From assembly GCA_040285855.1 (NCBI GenBank), contig JAUFOQ010000016.1:1736001-1800000 (forward strand): a DNA stretch of 64,000 bases, in the 5' to 3' direction. Made by a program: the position numbers and the translations under genes. The notes under the pieces were generated by a model, which was not told where the DNA came from, did no database searches, and saw nothing but the letters and a program-made list of their open reading frames with translations. Numbering within the stretch: position 1 is the first letter of the stretch; each line of letters begins with the position of its first letter. Shown here in pieces: positions 2,251 through 44,526 of the stretch. Source of the DNA: Eukaryota sp. GEM-RC1. Its lineage: Eukaryota.

Positions 2251-3689
2251 TCAAAGTTCAACATGTTTCTATCAATGTTGGGTTCATTTGACAGCTTCGC
2301 AAGAATGACTTCAACTGAATTATTTGAAGGTGGTGGACGTTCATCAGCAATTAATGACATAATTAGTTTCTCAATTGTCTTTGTTTTTACCAGTATATCA
2401 GGCCCACCATGTATAAACTACAGCTTTGGTCTTGAGAAGTGTAACTCTCACAATTCTTTTCAACTGATTGACTGTGTGAATCATTCAAATTTTTGAAAAA
2501 TGTCCGGTGAACCTTTGTTGAGATACGCTTCACATGGAGAAATTGGATCAGTAGTTCCTTCAATGTTCAATTGATATTTAATTCTAGGAGGAACTTTCAA
2601 ATTAAGCATTGCAGAAATTTGAAGCAAGAAATTACTGTTAGAGCTAACTTTAACTATGAACTGAACTATAAGAGAACAAATTGGTTTTTCAGTGATGACA
2701 GTCATTTTTGACCAAGGTGTTGTTTTCACCAAACGTTTGAATTCACTAACAATAGCAAAATGAAGTTTAAACGTTGCCTTGATGTCAAGGATCCAATACT
2801 AAAAACATCTGAAGACCCAACATGTTCACATGGACGTGCTTTTGAAAACTCTGCTCCAAAAGATGGATGTACTAATACTTCATACATTGGCAGATTCAGT
2901 TCATGAATTGTGTTCAAAAAGTTTCACAACTACTGATGTTCTCAAGAAATTATGGATTTTTAACTCTATCAGCCAATATATGACGAAGTTATGTCGAGTA
3001 TCCTTGTTTGTATTGTTTTGAAGGTTGTAAAGAGTATTCCATTGAACATTCCTGTTTAGTAATGTTGTTCAGACCAAGACAGCAGTTGGTAACCATTTCA
3101 TTTTAATGGCATATTAATCCACTCATCTGAATATTCATTTGGAATTATATTGTGATAAATCTCACTTATGAATTCTGTTTTTGATCATCAGACAGCTGAA
3201 TTTGGTCTCTGAAATTGTGTGACATTGTCCAAATTTCCTTAAAAATCAACCATCATTTAGACATGTATGGCATAAATAAACTATACACAGACGGTTTTTT
3301 CTGTCTAGGAGGATTGTTGACTCTGAAAGAAATTTTGGTCAAAAATATACGAATAACCAGGTTCAATATTTTTTCGAGGCGAAAAAATTGATAGCATTCT
3401 ACTCTATCAAATTGAGGAAAATCGTTGAGTTGGTCTTCAGATCCAAAAAAACTACTTTGCGCTGACTGACTCGAAATTTTGCTTGTTTTACTAAGAGTTT
3501 CTAAATATGTTTGAACAAATGTGTTCATTATTTGGCTACAAGTTCAAGAGGTTGTACTGTAAGAGTATATTTGCCTTTTCGCTTAGTAAATCAATGTATA
3601 GAGATGTTGCATCCAAAAGTATAAGTTGTTTTAGACGTTCTGTAAATCTTTGTTTCCAAATTTTGTTACTCCTCTCCTAAAAGCCTTCT

Positions 3690-27516: not shown

Positions 27517-30003
27517 CTAATCTAAATCTCCACCTAATGCAGCAATAGAAATTCGAACCTTTGACAACGAATCCTCCAATTCTTCCATACTCTCTCTCAA
27601 TTCAGAGTCTAACTTGCCAACTCCACTTAACTGATGGGCAATATCAGCCTGAACACTACCCATTTGAGCTTCAACAGTTTCAATTCTGCCTTCAAGTAGT
27701 TTTCTTGCTTCAAAAGCTTCGTTCCGTATGGTCTTGATTCGGTCCATGAGATTGGAAGTGGACAATTTCGATCCTTCAGTTAACACATCATCAGAAGACA
27801 TTAGGTTAATGGAATCCTTGATCCTGTGGATTTCAGTTTTAAGGTTGGTGACGTCAGCAGAACACGTTTCAATGGTTGATTGGAGTTCAGTGATTTGATG
27901 AGCCACGTCGGATGATTGAGATGAAAATTTGGATGATATCGACTCAATCTGAGTAGAGAAATCAGATTTGATTGCTTCAAATCGTGATTCAACTGAAGCT
28001 TCCATTTCCTTCTGGAAAGCAGAGAATTTAGTCGAAAACAGGTCATTAAGTTGCTCCTCACGTAAACTTGCCTGTTCATCAAAATCAGCAAGTCGTTGAT
28101 TGATTGTATCTGATTGAGTATCAAGTTGCCTCTTAAAGCCACCAGTTTCCTTCTTCACTTCTTCAACATCCATATTTACTTTAGCCACAACTCCCTCAAT
28201 CCTCTCTCCAACTGCTCTTTCCACCTCCACAACTTTCTCTCCAACGGCTTTCTCCACCTCCATAACTTTCGCACCAACTGATTTCTCCACCTCTACAACC
28301 TTCTTAAAGACCTCTTGTATCTCTTCCTTTGCTGCTTCATCACCTTCTTGGATCGCCTTCTCCAATAGTTCAGTGATAGTATTAAGAGACTCACGTAGAC
28401 TACGCTCAGACTCAGCTACTTTTCTACTTAGAGACGTTACTTCCTTTGATTGAGAAGAGCCCACCTGTGATAGTTTTCTCTCGATATCGCCATCAGCAGA
28501 ATTCACACGATCTTCCATTAACTTCATGGATCGTTGGATTTGATTTAACACCACGTAAAGTTCTGAATGGACCTCACTATTCTTTTCTTCAATTGAATCG
28601 ATTTTACCAGTCAATGTCTTCTCAGCAGTCATTCGAGCGGCAAGAGCCTCTTGATTATTTGATAGACGAGCTCTAATCAAGTCCATTGATTTCTTAACAG
28701 TGGTCACATCACCAGTGATAGACTCAAGAACTTCGTTGATAACACTGAGTTGATTCTCGGTTTGACTGTCATCATTCAGTTTTGATAGCTTGTAATCAAC
28801 CTTTCTATCAATTTCAGTTGCCAATACCGTAGCGACATCTCCAATAGAACAATGAGATCTGAAATACCCAGCTAAAACGTCAGCAAGGGGGTCAGAATGA
28901 CGATATGATGGAGAAGACTTGGGACCATCACTTAAATCATAGGAAACCTCTCCAGATACATCTAAAGCGTTATCATCCTCTTCATCTTGGAAACCTCCGT
29001 CTAGCCCAAGTTGTTCACAGAAAGGATTTAGCTCAATCATCCATATCTCATCTAAAGCACTGGTACCATCGGGAGTACCTCCAAAAGCACAGAGGAATCC
29101 GATTGACTCGTATGACGTGACTGTGAGTGAGAAGAGAAAGCGGGGTGAGGGAGCAGAGAAAAGGGAAGAATCGTTCCATTCACCATCAATGGATTCGGCC
29201 TTAATAACAGGAGATTTGCTTTCGAAAAGGAAGATAAAGGCGTTGTTGCATGAACCACCGCTGCGTTGTCCACCAAGTATGATGATTGCATCGTTGGCGA
29301 TAGCAGCGCATCCAGCATGAGCTAAGGGCGTGGGAGTAGGAAAGTTAGGGGAGAATGTGTATTGAGAGAAAGTCATGGAGGATAGAGAGAAGATCCATGC
29401 ATCAGCTAGGCGGCGACTTTCAGAGGCTGTTCCACCAAAGATGAAAAGAGCTTCCAAGAGAGGAATGTATTCCATAGATTGACCATAACGAGGAAGAGGT
29501 TTGGAAGAAGCAGTCCTGTCAGGGGAAAGGCAGGTCCATTCTTGGGTTGCAGTATCGAAGCACCACAAGTCATTGAAGAAATGAGCAGGTCTTCGTTGTT
29601 TGACTCCTCCAAAGAGATAGATCTTGGAGCCAAGGGACACCATGGAGTGCCCATATCTGGGAGGTGGGGAAGATGTTGAAGAGTGAATCTGAGACCACTT
29701 TCGGGCAGAGATGTCAAAAGACCAAAGATCATTGAGTTCTCGCTTTTTGCTGGACATACCACCAAAGACGTAGGCATGCATTCCACAAGCAGCACCAGCA
29801 GATCGATAACGAGATTCAGGACCTTTTGTTTGTTTTTCAACAACTGACCATTGAGCAGAGGCGCTATCAAAAATGTAAGAATCATGTTGATATATGCCGC
29901 GTCTAGAGATTCCGGAAAAGATAAAAAGAAACTGTGATACAGGAATCCCCACATGTCCAAAACGTTCAGTTGGGCTTGTTACTTGAACATTGAGTTTTTC
30001 CAC
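27517..30003 (-). CDS. Kelch-repeat protein with C-terminal coiled coil
   Basis: Repeated R-x-x-H...FGG...ND-L-W kelch units and a long heptad-rich C-terminus. Confidence 0.88.
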   Translation of the reverse strand: MEKLNVQVTSPTERFGHVGIPVSQFLFIFSGISRRGIYQHDSYIFDSASAQWSVVEKQTKGPESRYRSAGAACGMHAYVFGGMSSKKRELNDLWSFDISARKWSQIHSSTSSPPPRYGHSMVSLGSKIYLFGGVKQRRPAHFFNDLWCFDTATQEWTCLSPDRTASSKPLPRYGQSMEYIPLLEALFIFGGTASESRRLADAWIFSLSSMTFSQYTFSPNFPTPTPLAHAGCAAIANDAIIILGGQRSGGSCNNAFIFLFESKSPVIKAESIDGEWNDSSLFSAPSPRFLFSLTVTSYESIGFLCAFGGTPDGTSALDEIWMIELNPFCEQLGLDGGFQDEEDDNALDVSGEVSYDLSDGPKSSPSYRHSDPLADVLAGYFRSHCSIGDVATVLATEIDRKVDYKLSKLNDDSQTENQLSVINEVLESITGDVTTVKKSMDLIRARLSNNQEALAARMTAEKTLTGKIDSIEEKNSEVHSELYVVLNQIQRSMKLMEDRVNSADGDIERKLSQVGSSQSKEVTSLSRKVAESERSLRESLNTITELLEKAIQEGDEAAKEEIQEVFKKVVEVEKSVGAKVMEVEKAVGEKVVEVERAVGERIEGVVAKVNMDVEEVKKETGGFKRQLDTQSDTINQRLADFDEQASLREEQLNDLFSTKFSAFQKEMEASVESRFEAIKSDFSTQIESISSKFSSQSSDVAHQITELQSTIETCSADVTNLKTEIHRIKDSINLMSSDDVLTEGSKLSTSNLMDRIKTIRNEAFEARKLLEGRIETVEAQMGSVQADIAHQLSGVGKLDSELRESMEELEDSLSKVRISIAALGGDLD

Positions 30004-33644: not shown

Positions 33645-35596
33645 TCATGTTTTGGCTTTCTTCTTCTTAGTAGTAGCTGGTTTCCGTGTCTTCCTAACAA
33701 CTTTTTCCTTCGGTTTAACTTCCTTCTCCTCGTCATCACTTCCACCTGCTATTGAGTCAAACATTACACCTTTAGCCTTCAAAGTCCTTGTCAACTTTGC
33801 CTTGACCTTAGGTTCAACAGATGGTAGAGACATTCCAGGGAAAACATACTCGTTATTGAAGAATCCCCAGTCATCACGGTCAATCTGATATTTTTCCATT
33901 AATTCAACGACTGAATCGAGACCAGCTGAAACGTCATCTGATTGCACACTGATTGGTAAAGTGAGTTTTCGTAATAAATACGGTAGGTAATCTAGAGAGA
34001 ATGATGTTGATCCAGCTAACGTCACAGGATACGATCGCAAAGATAAATATTTAAATATTCGTTTGAATTTGCTAGTTTTGGAGTATTTGCCCAAAAACTG
34101 TGGAAAATCTGTTCTTTTTAAATCGCCACTGACTTTAACACCGGGATAAATACATGAAGTAATTGCTTTACAAGGCATCAAATGCCACGATTGATCTTCC
34201 ATAATTGACCGTCCAATTATATCTGATTCAGAAAACGATTGAGCTGCAACTGCCAAATTCTGCAATCGTTGATTGACGGGGACATTAAATGGAGCTTCAC
34301 TAAACAGATAATTCTCTTGAACCATTAACGGAACAAGATCGTCAACAAAATAATCATTCATACGGTCATAAATCCACGGTTTCTGTTTACCAATCATAAG
34401 TGATGAAGGTGGTGGTTTAAACATTGCAGGAACAACGGACCATGCGTTCTTTGATAGTTGTTTTAAATCTAACTTTTCAGCCACGTCAAGAAAGGAAACT
34501 GACCGTGATAATCCCAGAGCGAGTGATTGGAGTGCAGTGATGCTATATCTGACATCTGACTGTGACATTTCAATCAATTTTCGTAATGCATCGTCATCAA
34601 TTGCCACGTTTTCATTTTGAGCTATAGCACGTAACCGTGGTAGAACTTGATCAACAGTTGGAGGTCGGAACACCAAAGCCAACGAATAATTCTTTAAAGT
34701 TTTAAATTTTGGATCTCCAACATCATTACCAATACAAATAACAGGATGTTTACTTTTCTTAGCTAACTGAATCAACTGGGCTAACCCCCTCTATCCCCCG
34801 TACTCATTCCATCTACTTCATCCATAATAAGAACAGTTCTGTTAGTTCCCTGGCTTAACATTGACTCAACAGAGAATGAGGTCAAAAAGTCACGTGTTAG
34901 GTCATTAAGAAGTGTTTTTGAGCGTGTGTCTGAAGCATTGAGTTCCAGTTTCTTATAACCAAGTTCAGCTGCGATTAAGGAAGCTGCAGATGTTTTACCA
35001 ACACCTGGAGGGCCTGACAACAAGGCAATGTTATGAGGTCGGTCCTTGGAAGAGTAGAAGTTGTTAAGGAAAGTTCGAAGTGCTTTAATTGAAGTAGGAT
35101 TTCCAACGAGATCATTAGAAGTAGAAGGTCTGTACTTATCAGGCCAAACTGAGGAGTTAGAGCTTGGGTTGAGCTTAGGGACAAGTTTGGGTTGTGATAG
35201 GCTTGGCAGAGGTTGGGATAGGCTTGGCAGAGGTTGGCTACGAGGTAGTTTGAGTTTTGGCTTTTGGAGAACAGGAATTCTGAGAAGTGGTTGAGAGGTA
35301 GAGGTAAGAGTTGGTCTTTGATCTGAACGGGATCGTTCCTTTACCATGTCAAAAAGTTGTTGGAGGGTGATGGTTTTTGTGTGATTTTGGAACTTTTTCA
35401 AGAGATTTTGTAAAGGGGGAGAGATGTTTGAGCCCACTATGGCGAAGTCTGTGCGTTCTGAAGGTGTGATTTTGATTTGGGCTGAGTATTGTTCACAGTA
35501 TTGTTTTATTTCTGTGCTTGTGAAGGGGGAAAAATCACCCAGGACACACATAGAAGTGTTACGAAGACATCCAGGTGTACCTTGAGGGGGTTGCAT
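33645..35596 (-). CDS. RFC1: Replication factor C subunit 1 (frameshift near 34780)
   Basis: BRCT-like N-terminus, WPDKYRP, Walker A GPPGVGKT, ELNASDTRS, MDEVDGMSTGDRGG and the RFC1 C-terminal domain. Confidence 0.95.
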
Positions 35597-36095
35597 TGTT
35601 TCTCAACTAAGCTAAAAACACTTGTGTTGAATTCATTTGGGGTGCATACTCCCCAAAATCATTCTACATGTAGTTTTACCCCAAATACTCTTCACCCCAT
35701 AACCACATATCCCCAATCTGATACACTTATACCTTCTTTGATGGATTCCATACATCTTTTGATATCAAGTGTTGAGCTTCTTTCAAGATAGAGACGTGTT
35801 TGCAGGTATTCGTTCTTAGAATTGTGAACCGTGTTCAACCATGTCATGAATAAACTCAACGTTGTACAACAATCCTACAACACATACATCACATTGACAT
35901 CTTATCCTCCAAAGGAAAACACTAAGGTTTGCTACAACTCTGATCGTGTAATACACTGCTGTGTCTTCAGTCATTTTTGACTGCATTTTTCAATTCTATC
36001 AGATGCTATCTGGAATGAGACTAAGGTCAACGACATCAAGTCCATGAAGCTTCATTCATCAGAAGACACAAAGACACCAAGTTATAACTACATGT

Positions 36096-36740
36096 ACAAC
36101 ATTTGTAATGACAACATTTGGTGATACAACATTTGTAACTACAACATTTGAAACTACAACATTTGTAATGACAACATTTGGTGATACAACATTTGGTGAT
36201 ACAACATTTGGTGATACAACATTTGTAACTACAACATTTGTAACTACAACATTTGTAATGACAACATTTGGTGATACAACATTTGTAACTACAACATTTG
36301 AAACTACAACATTTGTAACTACAACATTTGTAACTACAACATTTGTAATGACAACATTTGTAATGACAACATTTGGTGATACAACATTTGTAACTACAAC
36401 ATTTGAAACTACAACATTTGTAACTACAACATTTGTAATGACAACATTTGTAATGACAACATTTGGTGATACAACATTTGTAACTACAACATTTGTAATG
36501 ACAACATTTGGTGATACAACATTTGTAACTACAACATTTGTAACTACAACATTTGTAATGACAACATTTGTAATGACAACATTTGGTGATACAACATTTG
36601 TAACTACAACATTTGAAACTACAACATTTGTAACTACAACATTTGTAACTACAACATTTGTAACTACAACATTTGTAATGACAACATTTGGTGATACAAC
36701 ATTTGGTGATACAACATTTGTAACTACAACATTTGGTGAG
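36096..36740. repeat. 15-bp minisatellite, 43 units
   Basis: Invariant ACAACATTTG followed by TAATG, GTGAT, TAACT or AAACT (last unit GTGAG). Confidence 0.97.
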
Positions 36741-36858
36741 AATCAATCTCAATCAACGTGTCCTATGTGTATTGAATTCTTATTGCTCATAATTTTGTCT
36801 TCTATATATAATGTCGTTAAACACAACCAATAAAATATACAACCTCAGTTTATCAAAC

Positions 36859-37970
36859 TTAACTAACACTACTATATCCCCCCATCACCCTCGCAAACAT
36901 CACAGCCAACGAAAACGACTCCTTATATCCAATCCCACAACAATACTCACACATCACTTCACGAAATTCATCCAATATTCCCAAACAATGTTCATCACAC
37001 ATCACTTCATCATTTAAATCTAATATCGACACAACAAAAGTATTGGTCAACGACAACACATTAAAGTACTTGTCCCTATCATTCAAATGAAAACTCAAAA
37101 TTTTGGCCATTATTAAATTTAAATCTTTTAACAACTGAAGTTTCAATTTCATATGTGGAAGACAATTTGATGTTGTATCATTTTGGTTCCAGTGCAGTGG
37201 TACAATATTGTGGACAATTGTGAGAACCTTTGTTTCTGTCTGCATGGAAATAGTACGAGTATTGTTCAAGTTGTTTTCAAAGTCTGTCTGAAGACCAAGT
37301 GAATTTGTTATTCTGTTGATAGATTCAGTGTCCTCATGATCTGTAACTTTTCTTGATAATTTCAAACTAGGTAAATTCGAATTTGGTTTGAGAGTATTTC
37401 GAGACAATAGATTTGGTCTCAATTTAGGCAAAGTAGTAAATCAATACGACGTTTTGGTGAAGGAAAAACGACTTGAGATGGAGTATCGTTAATGCGAGTA
37501 TTGTCACAAGCATGTAAAAGAGTAGGAGACTGAGGCTGAGGAGGAGGAGGGGAACGAGCAATTGTAACTCGTTTAACGTCTTTGAGTAGATCCTTAAGAT
37601 GATTTAGAGTTGAAGTTGTTGATTGAAGTGGAAGAGATATGTCACGCTTCTCATAAGAACCATCAAAAGGAAAGAGATGAACAGTTTCTAGATCAACATC
37701 TAGCACAATGGCAACGGCTGCTTTGTAGTTGAGGCAAAAATCCATGGTACCCTTTTTAAGATCATCTGGTAAGTCAGATGTTGACACTTCCGTTATGTGG
37801 ATGGATTTAGTTCTCCATGAATTGTATGTTCCATAAGGAAGAAGAACAAGTGACAAATTAACTGCATGCTTATCAGCAAGCTTTACAACAAGTTTCATAT
37901 ATGTTTTGATGGTACGGGAACGACTTTCTTGTTCAGAAGTATTTCTGAGTTTGAAAATTGAGTAGGACAT
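36859..37970 (-). CDS. Orphan ORF(s) inside the Fanzor element (183 aa + 190 aa, possibly one frameshifted gene)
   Basis: Overlapping ORFs 37419-37970 and 36859-37431, divergent from the Fanzor ORF. No motif recognised. Confidence 0.5.
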
Positions 37971-38117
37971 GGGAAATTCTGGTATAGACTTTATTACAGA
38001 TTTCGTTTTTTAACACGTGAATTCCCACACACATGTCCATTACAGTCTGTGTGGGATTTCATTTTCCTTCCTCCTACAGTATAAATGTCGTTTGTTCTGC
38101 ATCCAAACAGACGTTGT

Positions 38118-38492
38118 CCGCCATTCTGTCCTTATCTGACTCAACTTGTGACTGTTTCCATTGCACGGTTTCGGGCTCAGTTGAGTTTAGATAAGGACAG
38201 TTCTTTCCCTCCACTGCCTCCGCTTCTGTTGCTTCTCCCTCTACTGCCGTTGCTTTCCCCACTTCTGTTGCTTCGATAATGCCGCCATTCTGTCCTTATC
38301 TGACTCAACTTGTGACTGTTTCCATTGCACGGTTTCGGGCTCAGTTGAGTTTAGATAAGGACAGTTCTTTCCCTCCACTGCCTCCGCTTCTGTTGCTTCG
38401 ATAATGCCGCCATTCTGTCCTTATCTGACTCAACTTGTGACTGACTCCATTGCACGGTTTCGGGCTCAGTTGAGTTTAGAAAAGGACAGTTC
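38118..38492. repeat. Three tandem copies of a unit containing a 75-nt hairpin
   Basis: Hairpins at 38126-38200, 38290-38364 and 38415-38489. CTGTCCTTATCTGACTCAACT pairs with AGTTGAGTTTAGATAAGGACAG. Confidence 0.9.
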
Positions 38493-38526
38493 ATTCTGTG
38501 TTTTATCAACACATACATTTATTGCC

Positions 38527-41500
38527 ATGAAGTACTCGTCTCCCCTGTTTATCCCTTCCCATCCTCCGTTCCCAAAAGACCTCACCGCTGATGGTGATAT
38601 TGAATCCAATCCAGGACCCGTAACTCAAGAAGCCATAAACTCAGTTTATCCTAATCAATGGGTTGATGACGAAGCGATAGTGGAGTACTGTAAAGTGATA
38701 TTTCAAGAAGCAGGGTTAGACTTTGAAAGCATGTTTATCCATCCGACCACATGGCTTCAATACATTGTTTCACCAGATGTCCCGCTAGATCAATGGTTGT
38801 TGACGAAAATTGAGAAAAATCAAATCACAAACTCCAAGTATCTCTTTGTTCCCCTTAGTGATACCATGACTAGAAATACTAATTATTCCAGAGAAGGTGT
38901 CACTGGTTCTCATTGGGGTTTAGCCATTATAGACTGTTGTGAAAAGGAATGGATCTTCATTGATCCAATGTTAACTACCGTCGATATGACTAAGTCTATG
39001 GTAAAATCAGCTGTAGACATATTATCCGAAGTACTTGTGCCATGGGGGTATGTTTTCCGTTATGTACCTGTGACTAAAAGTCAGTCTGCTAACGACTGTG
39101 GAGTTTATGTCATTGCGTATATTCAAAAATATGTTGAACTTTTTAAAAGACTCATGTATGTTCCGTCTCTGATGTATTTGGAAACTTATTTGGTCCAAGT
39201 GAACAATGAACTTCAAGCAGACATATTTCGTGAAAAAATTCGGGATGTATTGTCTCAACAAAGGACACTTTATCTACAACAACGTCAAACCACAGTAGCT
39301 CCTATTGTACCATCGTTACCCATTCAACCTCCTGCCGGTAAAGAACATCCAACCACTTCAATTCCTCTCACAGGTTCACGTCTTGCTAGTACTAAAACAT
39401 CTACTGGTTTAAGCACTAAAAAAAGGAAAGCCAAAATTTCAGATGTTCCATCACCACGAGGTTCACCTTTAATTCAACGAAATAAATTTAGAACTACCAG
39501 CTCCCTTGTTTCAACTGGTGACACTCCAATACGAAAGACCCACCGCCGTATGTCCACATTGGAATCATCGGAATTACCACAATCTGAACTATCATCACCA
39601 TCTGAACTATCATCACCATCTGAACTACCACCATCTGAACTACCACCAAAATCACAGGCCTCCATTATGTCGTATCCATCGCCAATTCAAGAAGAAATCC
39701 AAAAAATGAAAGTAAATCTACACACTGAGCCTATAGAAGAAGAAATTCAAATTCAAGACTTTCTTAAATCCCCTTTACTTTGGAACAATCTGCCAACTTT
39801 TTGTTTAATTCATGTTCAAAGTGATTTTGCCAGTTCAGAAAGAATTAATGGCAAAAATGTTCAACTTGTTCAAGATGATGATGACATTGAAACTGTTGAA
39901 GGTGAAGCTGAAGATCAATTAGAAGTTAAACGTGATTCTTCTGTTGATCCGATTGTATCAATTTCCATCCAGATCATTGATCACAATGAATTTAATGAAA
40001 AGCATTTATTTTCTCATGGTAATTTTGATACTACAAACTTGGATTTGTGTACTTTACATATTTCAGATAGTGAATCCAGTATGCTTAAAAACTTCATTTC
40101 CTTCATTACTCAACATTGTCCGCGATTGTTTGTGAGTTATGACTTTCACTTAGATACATTTCCCTTTCTTGTATCACGTTGTCAAGTCCTCAAAATCAAT
40201 ACAACGTTTACTTTTCCAGAATTTAAACCCTATATTCCCTTTTGGTTCAACAAATGGTGTAAGGAAACAACTTTTGGTCCGTTTTTTAGTCTCGATTTGA
40301 ATGCTGTATTGAAGAATTTTTATGTCTTTACTGGTGGCCGTTTTTTGGAAAATGTTGTTCAAATTTTTCTTGAAATGAATAATTTTTCTAAAAATGAAAC
40401 TGTCAAACGCTTGGAAGAACTTGATCATGACTCTGATCCTGATGAAGTTCAATTGGTCAATGATGTCCAAAACTTGCATGGCATAATTGACAGTATTAAT
40501 GTTTTAGTTCCAGACAATCCCAAAGTGAAGGTCGATAAGATTAAAAAGAAATTTGTAAAAAATTTGGAGAAAGTAAATGAACTTTGGGCCAAGGAATCGA
40601 CAAGACCGCTATTGTTGATGAACTCAATTCAACAATTACCTCTGATTGAATACTTATTGGCTGACCTATTGGATCCCAAAAAACAAACATTACGTTCAAA
40701 GTCACCAATGAAAGTGGTTAAGAAACGACTAGACAATGTTGTATCCAAAGCGAAGGTTAAATTTATTGAATCTCGTGTTAAGAGAGCTCACCAAGTAAGA
40801 GTCCGTAGTACTCTCTTTTTGAAACATTTTTTTGTTCATAATTTTCACCATTCTGGTATTTTAGGTTACATTCAGAAGTTACTGCCTGCTGCTGTTCCAA
40901 ATGTAACTGTTAAGGAAGAAATGAATTCTGATACAGATGAGTCAACTGACGAAGAAACAGATGTACATTCAGAGTCTATCGATGCTACTGCTCCTCCCGT
41001 TAAATTAGAAAATATTGAAGATGCGAGTGGTGAACCTGAACCTGACCTTTGGACTAGAATTCAAACTACCAAAATTGAATTGCCAGACTGGAAGAATTTT
41101 TTTACGTTGAAATCAATGGAACAAGTGTTATCTATGATGACGATTAGGGACTACAAACTTGTAAACAATCAGAATCATATTAGGACTGTACAAGAATCGT
41201 TAACAAACATAATTTCTAAACCAAATGATGGCTCAACTCAAAATCAGTTTGCTCAACATTTCTTGATGCATTACATTCCTCGTTTAGAACTAGCTGCTCG
41301 ATCTGTTGGACTTGATAGGATTGTGTTTCCCAGTAGCCTCAATTTATCTCCTATATTGCATTACATGGCTACAGAAATTATTACAAATTACAAGACTAAC
41401 ATGAGTGAACACTTTCACGAATATGTTTTTCAAGTATTTAATTTGGTTACCCTGAAAAAAGATAGACTTAACAAGCTTACTGATAAGAATCAACGACAAG

Positions 41501-43589
41501 AGTTGTGTACAAAGCTTAATGAAGTCAGACAGTTGATCATTAATGGGGAAATTTCAAAAATTAATTTTCAAGATGTTGAAGTGTTTCCTGATCCCAATTC
41601 TAGACTGAGTTTACTATTTTTTAACTATTTGTTTACTTTTTTTGAAGGTAAAATGGAAAAAACAATTCATTATGCTGAAAAAGTAGATCCTTTGAAATTC
41701 TTAAGTCATGCAGTGTATTTGAAACGTCTTGTTGAGGACTCTTGTACTGGAGTTACTGCCAACAATCCTTTTCCTCTGACAAAATCATTGATTCCTAATC
41801 ATATCAGATTGGATACTACATGGTTTAAAAAAGTTTATGCATCAGAAATTAAAGGTAGCTTTGATGACGTTCGAAAAGATATTTGGCACTCAGTTTTGAA
41901 ACCAAAGTTTCTTCCAAAGTCATTGTCTCATGACTTCAAATACAGTTCTATTTCTACAGATGGAGTTAGCTGTAGTTTAATGATGATGCGGAAAGATCTG
42001 CTTGATGGGAGAGGAAATCCTCATAAGAAGGTGAAAGCTGTTGACTACACAGCTACTGAAAGGTACATTGATTCTTTGAGTTCCACAGAAATTCAAAACT
42101 TAAATTTGAAATCAAAAGGAATTGTTGCTATTGATCCTAATCAGCATGATTTGATGTATTGTGCTTCTTTAAAATCTAAGGAGGAAAAGAAAATCGAAGG
42201 TTTCGATACATCAGCCAATCTCAGAAGAAGAAAGATTTGTCCAAAATCGTCAAAGAAAAAAGGAAGCTTGAAAAAATTAAAAAAGGAATTGAAGGATTGG
42301 AAAGACGCACCTACTATTGACAAACCATCAACTGTCAAGTTGAAAAATCGAGACAATTGGAAAGTATTCAGATACACTGCTGGGGAACGCAATGCCGATA
42401 TTAAAAAAGTCTCCATGGAAAAGAAAAAAACAAGTAAGGAAAGAAAAAAGAGCTAAGAGGAAGAAGAGGAAGCTGGAGAAGAAAATAAGACGATACAATC
42501 TCCACCGTTTATCTGAATCCGAACGGTTACAACAATATTCTACTCAATTTATTCACATTCCAGATGGCAGACGCATTGACATAAATGGGCAACAAATTTT
42601 AGATCAATGGGGCTCTAACTCGCCAGGTAGTAAATCTTGTGAATTGACTCAGTATTCTGCTTTTGTTCTTGGTAAAGAAATTGCCTGCTCTTTACTACGA
42701 TCACCCACTACTGATCAAAAAACTACTGAAGGAATTTACGAAGAAAAGTGGTTTAGACGGAATCGTCTCACACAGTATTCAAGAAAGGAACGAAGTGAGA
42801 AAAACATGCTTCACAGATTTACTCTCCAGTTTGGAAACCCAGATGAAGTCGTTGTTGGGTATGGAGACTGGAACGACACTGCTTTTCGTCGAAGAAGAGG
42901 TAAAGCATCTACTGTAAAAGGTGCTTCAATTCGGAAATTATTGAGAAAATTTGGATTTAAAGTGTTCCTAGTTGATGAATTTAAGACCAGCAAATGTTGC
43001 TCTGCATGTGTTTCCAGAAACGACGAAGGTATCTGTTCCAATCCTGAAAGGATAAAAGTCACTGATCCTCATTGGAAGAAGAAGTTACAGAAGGAAGAGA
43101 AAGAATTAAAAAAGGAAATTATGGAACACAATCAATTAGACAATATTGTGGAGCGTAACTTTGATGATGAATGGACCAAACAGTTGACATTATCGAAAGA
43201 AAGATTGAAGAGCAAAAAAGTCTCACCATGGGGCTTAGTTGAATGTGCCAAATGTCATGTCCTCTGGAATAGAGACTTCAATTCTGCTATCAATATTTAC
43301 AATATTGTAAATGGAACCATTCAAGGTCAAGGTAGACCTGCCATCCTCGAGAGACCAAAATCTCAAACAACACCTGTCGTGGATGGCGGGAATACAGATC
43401 AGATTCCAAAAGAAAAAGACTGTGAGTAAGGGTAAGGGTAAAGCAAAGCGTCCTCTAACAAAAGTCAGAGGTCCTAACAAGTGTGGTATATGTTTTCAAC
43501 CTGGACATAACAGAGCAACTTGTCCAAATAAGCCTAAGAAAGATGTACCCAAGGACTCACATGTAAACCAGAAAGATCAGGAATCTTGA
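38527..43589 (+). CDS. Multidomain Fanzor: 2A peptide, Ulp1/C48 protease, PolB exonuclease-like, Fanzor RuvC nuclease, CCHC knuckle (two +1 shifts in A-runs near 42420 and 43410)
   Basis: DLTADGDIESNPGP; SHWGLAIID..IDP..QSANDCGVYV; STDGVSCSL; VAIDPN (D 42133); VGYGDW; LVDEFKTSKCCSAC (E 42977); CAKCHVLWNRDFNSAINI (D 43274); CGICFQPGHNRATC. Confidence 0.88.
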
Positions 43590-43708
43590 ATCTATGAAGT
43601 TAGCTCGTCTTAAAAGACTTTGCGAATGAGGACATTTATTTGTTCAAACTGTGGGTTTTGCTCTATGAGATCATGAAAATGTGAAGGGTTATTCCCTTAT
43701 GCATTTGG
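43590..43708 (+). ncRNA. Candidate Fanzor omegaRNA scaffold (3' part)
   Basis: Non-coding segment between the Fanzor stop and the inferred right end, ending in a 12-bp hairpin (43677-43706). The 5' extent is unknown. Confidence 0.45.
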
Positions 43709-43771
43709 AATGAAATTCACAGTTGTGTTTCAGAACCACATTTTGGAAAATAAAGCACAAATTCCACAACA

Positions 43772-44526
43772 ATGGCACAAAATAACCCAGCCCCCTCCCA
43801 ACCTGCTCCTGTCCCTACACAACCTGCTCCTGTTCAGCAACAAGCTCAAGTCATTCATATGCCTGCTCAGTACACCATCCCTCAGATGGGGTATCACCCC
43901 GGTTTAGCTGCTCCTCCAAAGAAGGGAGCTGTTAAACAAATCGTGGTTGTAGTCGCCGTTATTTGTATGTTTGTAGCTTTCTACTCTAACCACAGTAGTT
44001 CTTGCGGTTGTGATCGGAATCAACGCCTTCGATCTGGGCCTCGATATTCAATATCCCTACACAGTCTCAGTCTCTGGAGGTGCTGCAAGTTTTGGTATCA
44101 AAGGAGGAACGTATGGAGTTGATAAAGCCAACCACAAGTTTTACGGTGAGCTTGATGTCCCCTTCATTTCACTCTCAGGGGAACTGTTCTGCCTCAATGA
44201 CAAGATAAGGGCCAAAATTCTTGGACAATGCACTCCACAATTTCTTTCAGTTTCCTACGAATGTGATAAGTTGATAGACTTCGTTGGTTTGTTATGTTTT
44301 GCCTACTTATCATAGTTCCTGAGATCCCTTCGAGTGCCAAAAGACTGGTGAAAAGAAGAAAGTAGATTCTTTCTATGGTTTCCCAAGAAAGTGCTCGGTA
44401 TATGAAGATGGTAACAATACTTGGTGTGCCATCAACAACCGTATTTACGAACGGTGTGTTGGCCCTGCGTGTTTTACCTTTGAAAAGCACTCATTTGCAT
44501 CTGCAAGCGATTTTGAATGTTCGTGA
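43772..44526 (+). CDS. Type II membrane protein with Pro/Gln-rich N-terminus and a 31-nt intron (43965-43995)
   Basis: Splicing GTATGT...CTAACCACAG joins ORF 43772 to ORF 44010 through a TM helix. A further frame break lies near 44310. Confidence 0.75.

Follow-up and report, generated by a model that had tools for sequence, protein, structure and literature searches.

The questions of where a mobile element begins and ends, and of which DNA its nuclease would cut, are raised by a locus of Eukaryota sp. GEM-RC1 in which what appears to be a multi-copy Fanzor1 element of about 8 kb lies between two divergent genes. The locus is contained in a stretch of 64,000 nucleotides (nt; positions 1,736,001 to 1,800,000 of contig JAUFOQ010000016.1, assembly GCA_040285855.1), hereafter called the window, in whose own numbering all positions are given. 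A preliminary description of this DNA had placed the ends of the element at a CATTTGG repeat (element 35641-43708) and had derived from them a native guide and a target-adjacent motif (TAM). The mobile Fanzor1 insertion near these ends is retained here, while the description is probably wrong in detail. With a probability of roughly 0.6, the ends lie further out, in the empty allele 35628 is followed directly by 43730, the guide begins at 43719-43723 and the TAM is situated upstream of it; the element would then likely span 35629 to 43718-43722.

CATTTGG does occur at both claimed spots, 37 bases before the RFC1 start codon on the left and, on the right, closely behind the hairpin 43684-43698. 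Deletion of 35641-43708 also reproduces the claimed 107-bp intergenic region, which had been compared with two other gene pairs, measured here at 60 and 85 bp (the start at 30003 of the pair 30003/30089 is a putative GTG). The accompanying caution that a 7-mer can match by chance was justified, about 26% of random pairs of zones of 64 x 74 bases sharing one and about 3% sharing one pinned within 12 bases. In addition, CATTTGG is present 29 times in the window, where 12.6 occurrences are expected, and 12 of the 29 fall inside the element's own 15-bp satellite. Because the motif is common in the window and chance sharing between random zones is frequent, CATTTGG alone is weak evidence for the ends: the site is non-random, but the 7-mer does not fix where the element stops. 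Intergenic length does not discriminate between end pairs either, since the outer repeat described below also leaves a short intergenic region, of 74 bp.

Candidate ends were ranked at this one locus, by scores that were all devised after the sequence had been seen. The two junction zones share nine direct repeats of at least 5 bp, among them a second 7-bp repeat, TTGTGTT (35622 and 43723), which lies in the same zones as CATTTGG and extends to an 11-bp repeat matching at 10 of 11 positions (ACACTTGTGTT on the left, ACAGTTGTGTT on the right, one C/G mismatch); exact occurrences of the shared pattern are confined to these two places in the window. Flush inside this repeat, both ends start with GAATT in inverted orientation, and 35629-35648 matches 43698-43718 in 15 of 21 columns, as well as only 2 of 3000 random pairs. 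The earlier statement that no terminal inverted repeats are visible was thus not borne out. The similarity continues over 42 nt (26 of 44 columns; 8/3000 random pairs as good), and the inverted alignment of the CATTTGG-defined ends is chance-like, with 775/3000 and 1065/3000 random pairs as good. When duplication and flush inverted repeat are scored jointly, 35629/43718 ranks first and the 9-bp variant 35628/43719 second; the score of 33, against a null maximum of 28, was reached by none of 400 random zone pairs. The better-scoring pair sits 11-12 bases outside the CATTTGG-defined ends. A Fanzor1 element in a short divergent intergenic region, with ends within about 20 bases of those claimed, is upheld, and the exact positions 35641 and 43708 are not. 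Similarly, the joined flanks of the claimed empty site are even more palindromic than had been described (18 of 23 columns; among 1200 random 7-mer repeat pairs, none attained the anchored score), but under the outer ends this palindrome is explained as two inverted repeats joined. Two other possibilities were considered. A host promoter motif as source of the 11-mer was rejected for lack of enrichment in the window, where its 8-mer core occurs 6 times with 6.2 expected. Ends of the type TGT...ACA with a 4-bp duplication, presumably Ginger-like, were set aside: the duplication matches at 3 of 4 positions, and the ungapped 24-bp inverted match from 35625 and 43721 (16 matching) is equalled by 23 of 300 random pairs.

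Folding also bears on the position of the ends. The predicted left hairpin has a core at 35636-35657 and an extension in which 35625-35632 pairs with 35661-35668 (z -3.2; 1/200 shuffles as good), and random upstream 12-mers fold equally well in 15/1000 cases. On the right, 43707-43724 pairs with 43647-43664, which random flanks equalled in 3, 9, 20 and 1 of 600 controls, the count of 20 belonging to a longer scaffold. Both CATTTGG copies, and bases beyond them, therefore fold onto the element interior, and since supposed flank bases pair with the interior at both ends, the CATTTGG-defined ends are doubtful. By eye, four CCCCA motifs within 35649-35713, at spacings of about 28, 16 and 16, resemble subterminal binding repeats.

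At RNA level, the 3′ part of the element is predicted to form an omega-RNA scaffold with a stem-loop at 43622-43644, a 4-nt linker, and a long stem (43649-43664 with 43707-43722) around a hairpin at 43677-43706. The fold is most pronounced when it ends at 43722 (z -2.81; 3/200), as compared with -0.78 at 43708 and -1.19 at 43718, and pairing of the long stem stays at 0.88-0.91 with random guides attached. The order stem 1, short linker, stem 2, guide, predicted here for the fold ending at 43722, resembles that of SpuFz1 (PMC10432273; this and the other sources are cited for the parts of their text that were available). A comparison with Rfam gave two matches, both below the gathering score. 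The outer ends come in two forms. A duplication of 9-11 bp with flush inverted repeats is the form that we hold at somewhat under even odds, and an end at 43722 with the 7-bp duplication TTGTGTT, which explains the stem, contains no mismatch and predicts the same empty allele, is rather unlikely.

The position of the ends determines what the nuclease would cut. According to the preliminary description, the guide would be the right flank after 43708 and the TAM a part of CATTTGG, so that the empty allele would be cleaved. With a guide starting at 43709, all six upstream bases compared are shared between the right junction of the element itself and the 107-bp empty site. Fanzor1 TAMs are AT-rich and 4-5 nt long (PMC13565253), and such a guide would therefore cut the element's own locus, the right junction being a perfect target. 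The general idea of a right-flank guide aimed at the empty allele survives by analogy; the exact guide start and TAM do not, and constructs derived from the CATTTGG ends are likely the wrong ones for testing the nuclease. Guides starting at 43719 or 43723 share no upstream base with the right junction. From 43723, the outer empty allele is matched without mismatch and the element's own left junction for only 7 nt; from 43719, there is a mismatch at position 4. The candidate TAM in the best reading lies upstream of the left duplication copy (TAAAA or ACAC) and differs from the element's own right end. For comparison, the SpuFz1 TAM, CATA, extends 2 nt past the TA duplication (PMC10432273, PMC3627910).

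The locus can then be pictured as a likely non-autonomous, MULE-like (Mutator-like element) cut-and-paste transposon whose inverted ends are short and imperfect and whose target duplication measures 9-11 bp; a transposase supplied in trans, or lost with an internal deletion, would have inserted it. A 3′ RNA from about 43620 would read past the right end, and its guide would start at the right duplication copy, i.e., at 43719 for the 11-bp duplication or at 43723 for the end at 43722 with the 7-bp duplication. Cleavage would then hit an allele that is empty or has lost the element by clean excision, while the locus of the nuclease itself would be spared. Repair from an occupied chromatid would restore the element, a form of restorative homing suggested by analogy with the TnpB work reviewed in PMC13565253. 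In a narrower version, which is quite unlikely, the element's right end, ACAG, with which the stem closes at 43722, would imitate the host ACAC that flanks the 7-bp duplication upstream, and the last TAM base would separate empty from occupied alleles; the guide would begin with the duplication itself and not after it, the moving enzyme would have been lost in the deletion described next, and the 2A-like signal and Ulp1 protease would process the polyprotein.

This deletion is suggested by two passenger genes of no known family, called X and Y. The relative P0070 (92% identity to gene X over 178 amino acids) matches 37970-37440 and continues for 111 amino acids without counterpart in the window, while P0067 and P0068 match gene Y from 37437-37440 onward. 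Four other members of the gene Y family share 90-97% identity with it, and their N-termini map nowhere in the window. As 111 residues of full-length X and 103 of full-length Y have no counterpart in the window, their sequences indicate that this copy either derives from an internal deletion or is a composite, and that at least about 640 bp are absent from it. The deletion may account for the absent transposase, and the missing segment could have held a mobilising enzyme. Gene X had no Pfam match and no usable Atlas match.

Several observations weigh against the outer ends and the mechanism built on them. All scores were chosen post hoc, which means that the counts overstate the true odds, and the evidence comes from one locus. 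The duplication taken alone is equalled in 85 of 400 random zone pairs, and its 11-bp form has a mismatch that falls at guide position 4. The control of the left hairpin weakens to 64/1000 with 19-mers. Stem pairing in the scaffold drops to 0.01 when it ends at 43718, bases 43719-43723 being needed; as these belong to the duplication in the 11-bp form, this counts against that form, and under the 7-bp variant the inverted repeat acquires a 4-nt asymmetry. That CATTTGG recurs as a direct repeat within the inverted repeats has to be put down to coincidence, of about 1 in 1000 by our own arithmetic rather than by simulation. Published Fanzor1 scaffolds include the 3′ duplication (PMC10711439, PMC13565253), which contradicts a guide that starts with it, though those are short constant duplications. 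In keeping with the earlier statement that no transposase is visible, neither a transposase family, the DDE transposase of MULEs included, nor a recombinase family was matched in the 9 + 19 + 2 proteins and open reading frames (ORFs) scanned. Ulp1, although present in plant MULEs (grapevine, PMC2528002), is also cargo of Crypton, CACTA and Ginger elements (PMC3212892, PMC2528002). Finally, between the three gene-Y copies with visible locus tags and any listed Fanzor piece there is a distance of 38-141 tags, and joint travel of gene Y with Fanzor is therefore not demonstrated.

If CATTTGG (or TTTGG) were the constant crossover core of a Crypton- or Starship-like element, moved by a tyrosine recombinase in trans, the ends 35641-43708 and the 107-bp empty allele would stand, and self-cutting would be avoided only by a guide that starts no later than 43704 and has, for example, TTCA or AATT as its TAM. 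The two virtual junctions do have a dyad axis in common, the spacer measuring 7 bp and the arms 4 and 6 bp, an arrangement matched by 15 of 60,000 sampled 7-mer repeat pairs (of 161,613), and each CATTTGG copy pairs with an arm inside the element, which is what a constant core would do. Crypton elements end in 5-6-bp repeats, mostly TATGG, as do most CryptonS, some of which have a C48 peptidase, and tyrosine recombinase sites have 6-8-bp spacers (PMC3212892); the Fanzor element MCi-2A contains a Crypton fragment (PMC3627910). At the present locus, TTTGG matches TATGG at 4 of 5 positions, a C48 peptidase is likewise encoded, and a terminal direct repeat of the 4-6 bp typical of Cryptons could be seen in CATTTGG or TTTGG, possibly in an internal position. 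However, the same dyads are simply the inverted repeat under the outer ends, and their arms measure 4-6 bp, not 11-13. CryptonS and CryptonF have their own tyrosine recombinase and, in the available text of PMC3212892, no inverted repeats, the opposite on both counts of what is found here, where the scan matched no recombinase and an inverted repeat is present, though readable as recombinase arms. A host 23-bp near-palindrome with the 10/11 repeat exactly flush would also be required, as would chance pairing of both host flanks with the interior, which together leave a Crypton-like core unlikely. An IS607-like GG core, as in Fanzor2 elements, was discarded: although the 7-mer includes GG, the encoded protein is of the Fanzor1 type and the scan matched no recombinase.

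The chimeric X/Y junction is real and gene-Y tags are not adjacent to listed Fanzor tags, so the 8 kb could also be a composite, in which the left part of a gene-Y element is fused at 37440 with a Fanzor element, or its ends could lie elsewhere, in AT-rich, near-palindromic zones whose direct repeats and TGT...ACA match at 35625/43721 would be partly chance. The flush duplication and inverted repeat nevertheless tie the outer ends together, and the tag lists are incomplete, with N- and C-terminal Fanzor pieces never paired, which makes this explanation improbable. More improbable still is a rolling-circle element of the Helitron2 or Replitron type, in which only the right end would be fixed and the duplication would vary. 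Hairpins occur at both ends, the left one containing the 5′ asymmetric repeat as in Helitron2, the left region is variable (gene Y in 4 members, as against at least 26 loci of the closest subfamily), and Chlamydomonas CRe-1/2/3 carry Fanzor1 with 7-19-bp duplications (PMC3627910). Yet the 3′ asymmetric repeat, expected upstream of the 3′ hairpin at 20-30 bp from the end, is downstream here, a wrong position for which Helitron2 was set aside; no candidate duplication follows a TTTT-like tetranucleotide (by eye, both orientations), and no Rep or helicase was matched. Starships were compared from PMC10104507 and Replitrons from PMC10288648; PMC10530073 was a further source.

Under the outer ends, the closest counterparts are the MuDR-type elements ROr-4, PBl-3 as well as MCi-4 of Mucorales (PMC3627910). 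These share Fanzor1, a protein of more than 1100 amino acids, no transposase on board (in the available text), inverted ends that are short and imperfect and begin with G or C plus A, and a duplication of about 9 bp; they were assigned by end similarity to confirmed MuDR elements, and the present element is compared with them by features. It differs in its 9- or 11-bp duplication with a mismatch and in having a satellite, a pair of passenger genes, and protein parts of the 2A-like, Ulp1, exonuclease-like and zinc-knuckle kinds. MCi-2 of Mucor circinelloides has an 11-12-bp duplication, a variable 5′ region, a length of about 9-10 kb and a 3′ Fanzor1, but no recognisable inverted repeats in the same source, an ATAATT-patterned duplication and, in one subfamily, a Crypton fragment. 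TvMULE1-4 of Trichomonas vaginalis resemble the element in their 20-38-bp imperfect inverted repeats, 10-14-bp duplications and many near-identical copies, but encode a MULE transposase and, as far as PMC2725143 was available, no Fanzor. MULEs in general have 8-11-bp duplications and terminal inverted repeats of 14-500 bp, which may be short and imperfect, with CCHC fingers in some groups (PMC6446971). The inverted match falls within this range, and the candidate duplication, of 9 or 11 bp with one mismatch, is seen at a single locus, but because no transposase was found the element is described as having MULE-like ends only and is assigned to no MULE group. Among solved proteins, SpuFz1 of Spu-1 and PpFz1 (8gkh, 9cf0) are closest (PMC10432273, PMC11423790). 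Spu-1 differs by inverted repeats of about 30 bp, a TA duplication and the TAM CATA (PMC10432273), and PpFz1 by the TAM ATN (PMC11423790), whereas the present protein has about 1700 amino acids.

Features of the locus. Positions are those of the window; strand is given as + or -, with a dot where none applies.
Feature	Position	Strand	Remarks
RFC1, host gene, left neighbour	33645..35596	-	ATG 35596; Pfam BRCT, AAA, Rad17 and RFC1 C-terminal matches
Left copy of 11-bp direct repeat, ACACTTGTGTT	35618..35628	+	likely target-site duplication; 9-bp reading 35619-35627
Left-end DNA hairpin	35625..35668	+	predicted; core and extension in text
Left terminal inverted repeat, likely, imperfect	35629..35648	+	weaker similarity on to ~35670
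Left CATTTGG	35634..35640	+	overlaps hairpin arm 35636-35642; internal to left inverted repeat in best reading
15-bp satellite	36095..36735	.	43 units, 5 types, core CATTTG; open in three frames
Gene Y, 3′ part, no known family	36859..37437	-	first ~103 codons absent in this copy
Internal deletion junction, gene X to gene Y	37437..37440	.	inferred from protein mapping
Gene X, 5′ part, no known family	37440..37970	-	P0070, 92% over 178 amino acids
Three tandem copies of 118-bp block	38118..38524	+	spacing 164 and 125; start of long ORF
Fanzor1 polyprotein ORF	38404..43589	+	Pfam and structure matches; ~1700 amino acids
2A-like motif DIESNPGP	38596-38619	+	just upstream of Ulp1 domain
Ulp1/C48 domain	38794-39138	+	Pfam
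polB-exonuclease-like domain	39784-40209	+	Pfam
Fanzor1 domain	from ~40708	+	RuvC D 42133, E 42977, D 43274; triad intact
Zinc knuckle	43482-43523	+	within polyprotein
omega-RNA scaffold	43620..43722	+	fold prediction only
Right terminal inverted repeat, likely	43698..43718	-	contains right CATTTGG 43702-43708
AATGAAATTC	downstream of right CATTTGG (43702-43708)
Right copy of 11-bp direct repeat, ACAGTTGTGTT	43719..43729	+	predicted guide start 43719-43723
Right neighbour, likely spliced host gene, no known family	43772..44525	+	host status inferred

What is observed directly comprises the repeats, the domain content (D-E-D triad intact), the numerous relatives and the chimeric joining of X and Y, and the features scored identify the encoded nuclease, as far as sequence can, as Fanzor1. 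The triad lies in the motifs IDP (42133), DEFKTSKCC (42977) and NRD (43274), two C-x2-C pairs form a C4 finger only a few residues behind the E, the Pfam TNB domain is matched and an STDG motif is present. As distinct from Fanzor2 or TnpB, the ORF itself matches only the SpuFz1 and PpFz1 structures, and the family profile only those of PpFz1, SpuFz1 and GtFz1. Two +1 frame breaks in runs of A (near 42420-42445 and 43410) are specific to this copy, as 4 of 4 and 13 of 13 spanning relatives, respectively, read through them, and are likely assembly errors. The motif DIESNPGP, which we take to be 2A/StopGo-like, is also found in most of the N-terminal relatives displayed and could release a short leader from the polyprotein. 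The exonuclease-like domain is fused upstream of Fanzor in at least three subfamilies; the first acidic motif looks degenerate in this copy, and the domain may be inactive. The number of C-terminal zinc knuckles varies by subfamily (P0021 and P0052 have two each and P0038 has one, whereas P0066 shows none), as does that of the 118-bp blocks among relatives.

Those relatives that carry the label Eukaryota sp. GEM-RC1 fall into clusters with 11, 26, 14 and 13 members and a number of singletons. Counted by listed tags, they represent at least 26 loci of the closest subfamily, A (mostly above 85% identity), at least 14 of the second and at least 13 of the third, at least 54 in total, the listing covering 15 of the 26 members of the largest cluster and leaving out 11 members. 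When 66 relative proteins were mapped on the window, homology extended only from 38085 to the stop at 43589 and none crossed an end; genes X and Y carry copy homology left to 36862. Fanzor pieces lie two tags apart in P0030/P0051 (004212/004214) and P0020/P0034 (012190/012192), which suggests tandem or nested insertions. Neither end has a second copy within the 64-kb window, and the exact 24-base right-end pattern had no match in metagenome contigs or viral contigs. Metagenome relatives of the Fanzor1 protein share 25-34% identity with it (80 of 169 loci); in these 80 loci, none of 700 ORFs matched genes X and Y or the Ulp1/exonuclease region, and the element ends had three DNA matches, all at chance level. 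Viral contigs contained no relative of the C-terminal Fanzor ORF.

Non-autonomous DNA transposons that carry Fanzor1 are already known, and the element class is therefore not new. The published rule, with the 3′ duplication in the scaffold and the 5′ duplication in the TAM, would however cause self-cutting for duplications of 7-12 bp. With a family of at least 26 close loci, guide start and TAM should be readable from one alignment, and if a single TAM base does separate empty from occupied alleles, the locus would provide a new guide-boundary rule for Fanzor1, a new element type and dozens of natural guides in one assembly. A literature search, weak in part, found no published Fanzor for this lineage, and hence the combination of 2A-like, Ulp1, exonuclease-like, Fanzor1 and zinc-knuckle parts in one polyprotein may be undescribed.

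Both junction zones are modestly satellite-like, 35617 being among 4 positions that reach 18/24 and 43702 among 5 that reach 11/12, a likeness partly due to CATTTG itself; the satellite units are possibly binding sites. Elsewhere in the window, 13 bases at 3133-3145 are identical to the centre of the reconstructed 107-bp empty site, which may be chance. As to the right neighbour, its first ORF had no Pfam match, and the reading frame resumes in other frames past an intron-like GTATGT...CTAAC...CAG near 43965-43996.

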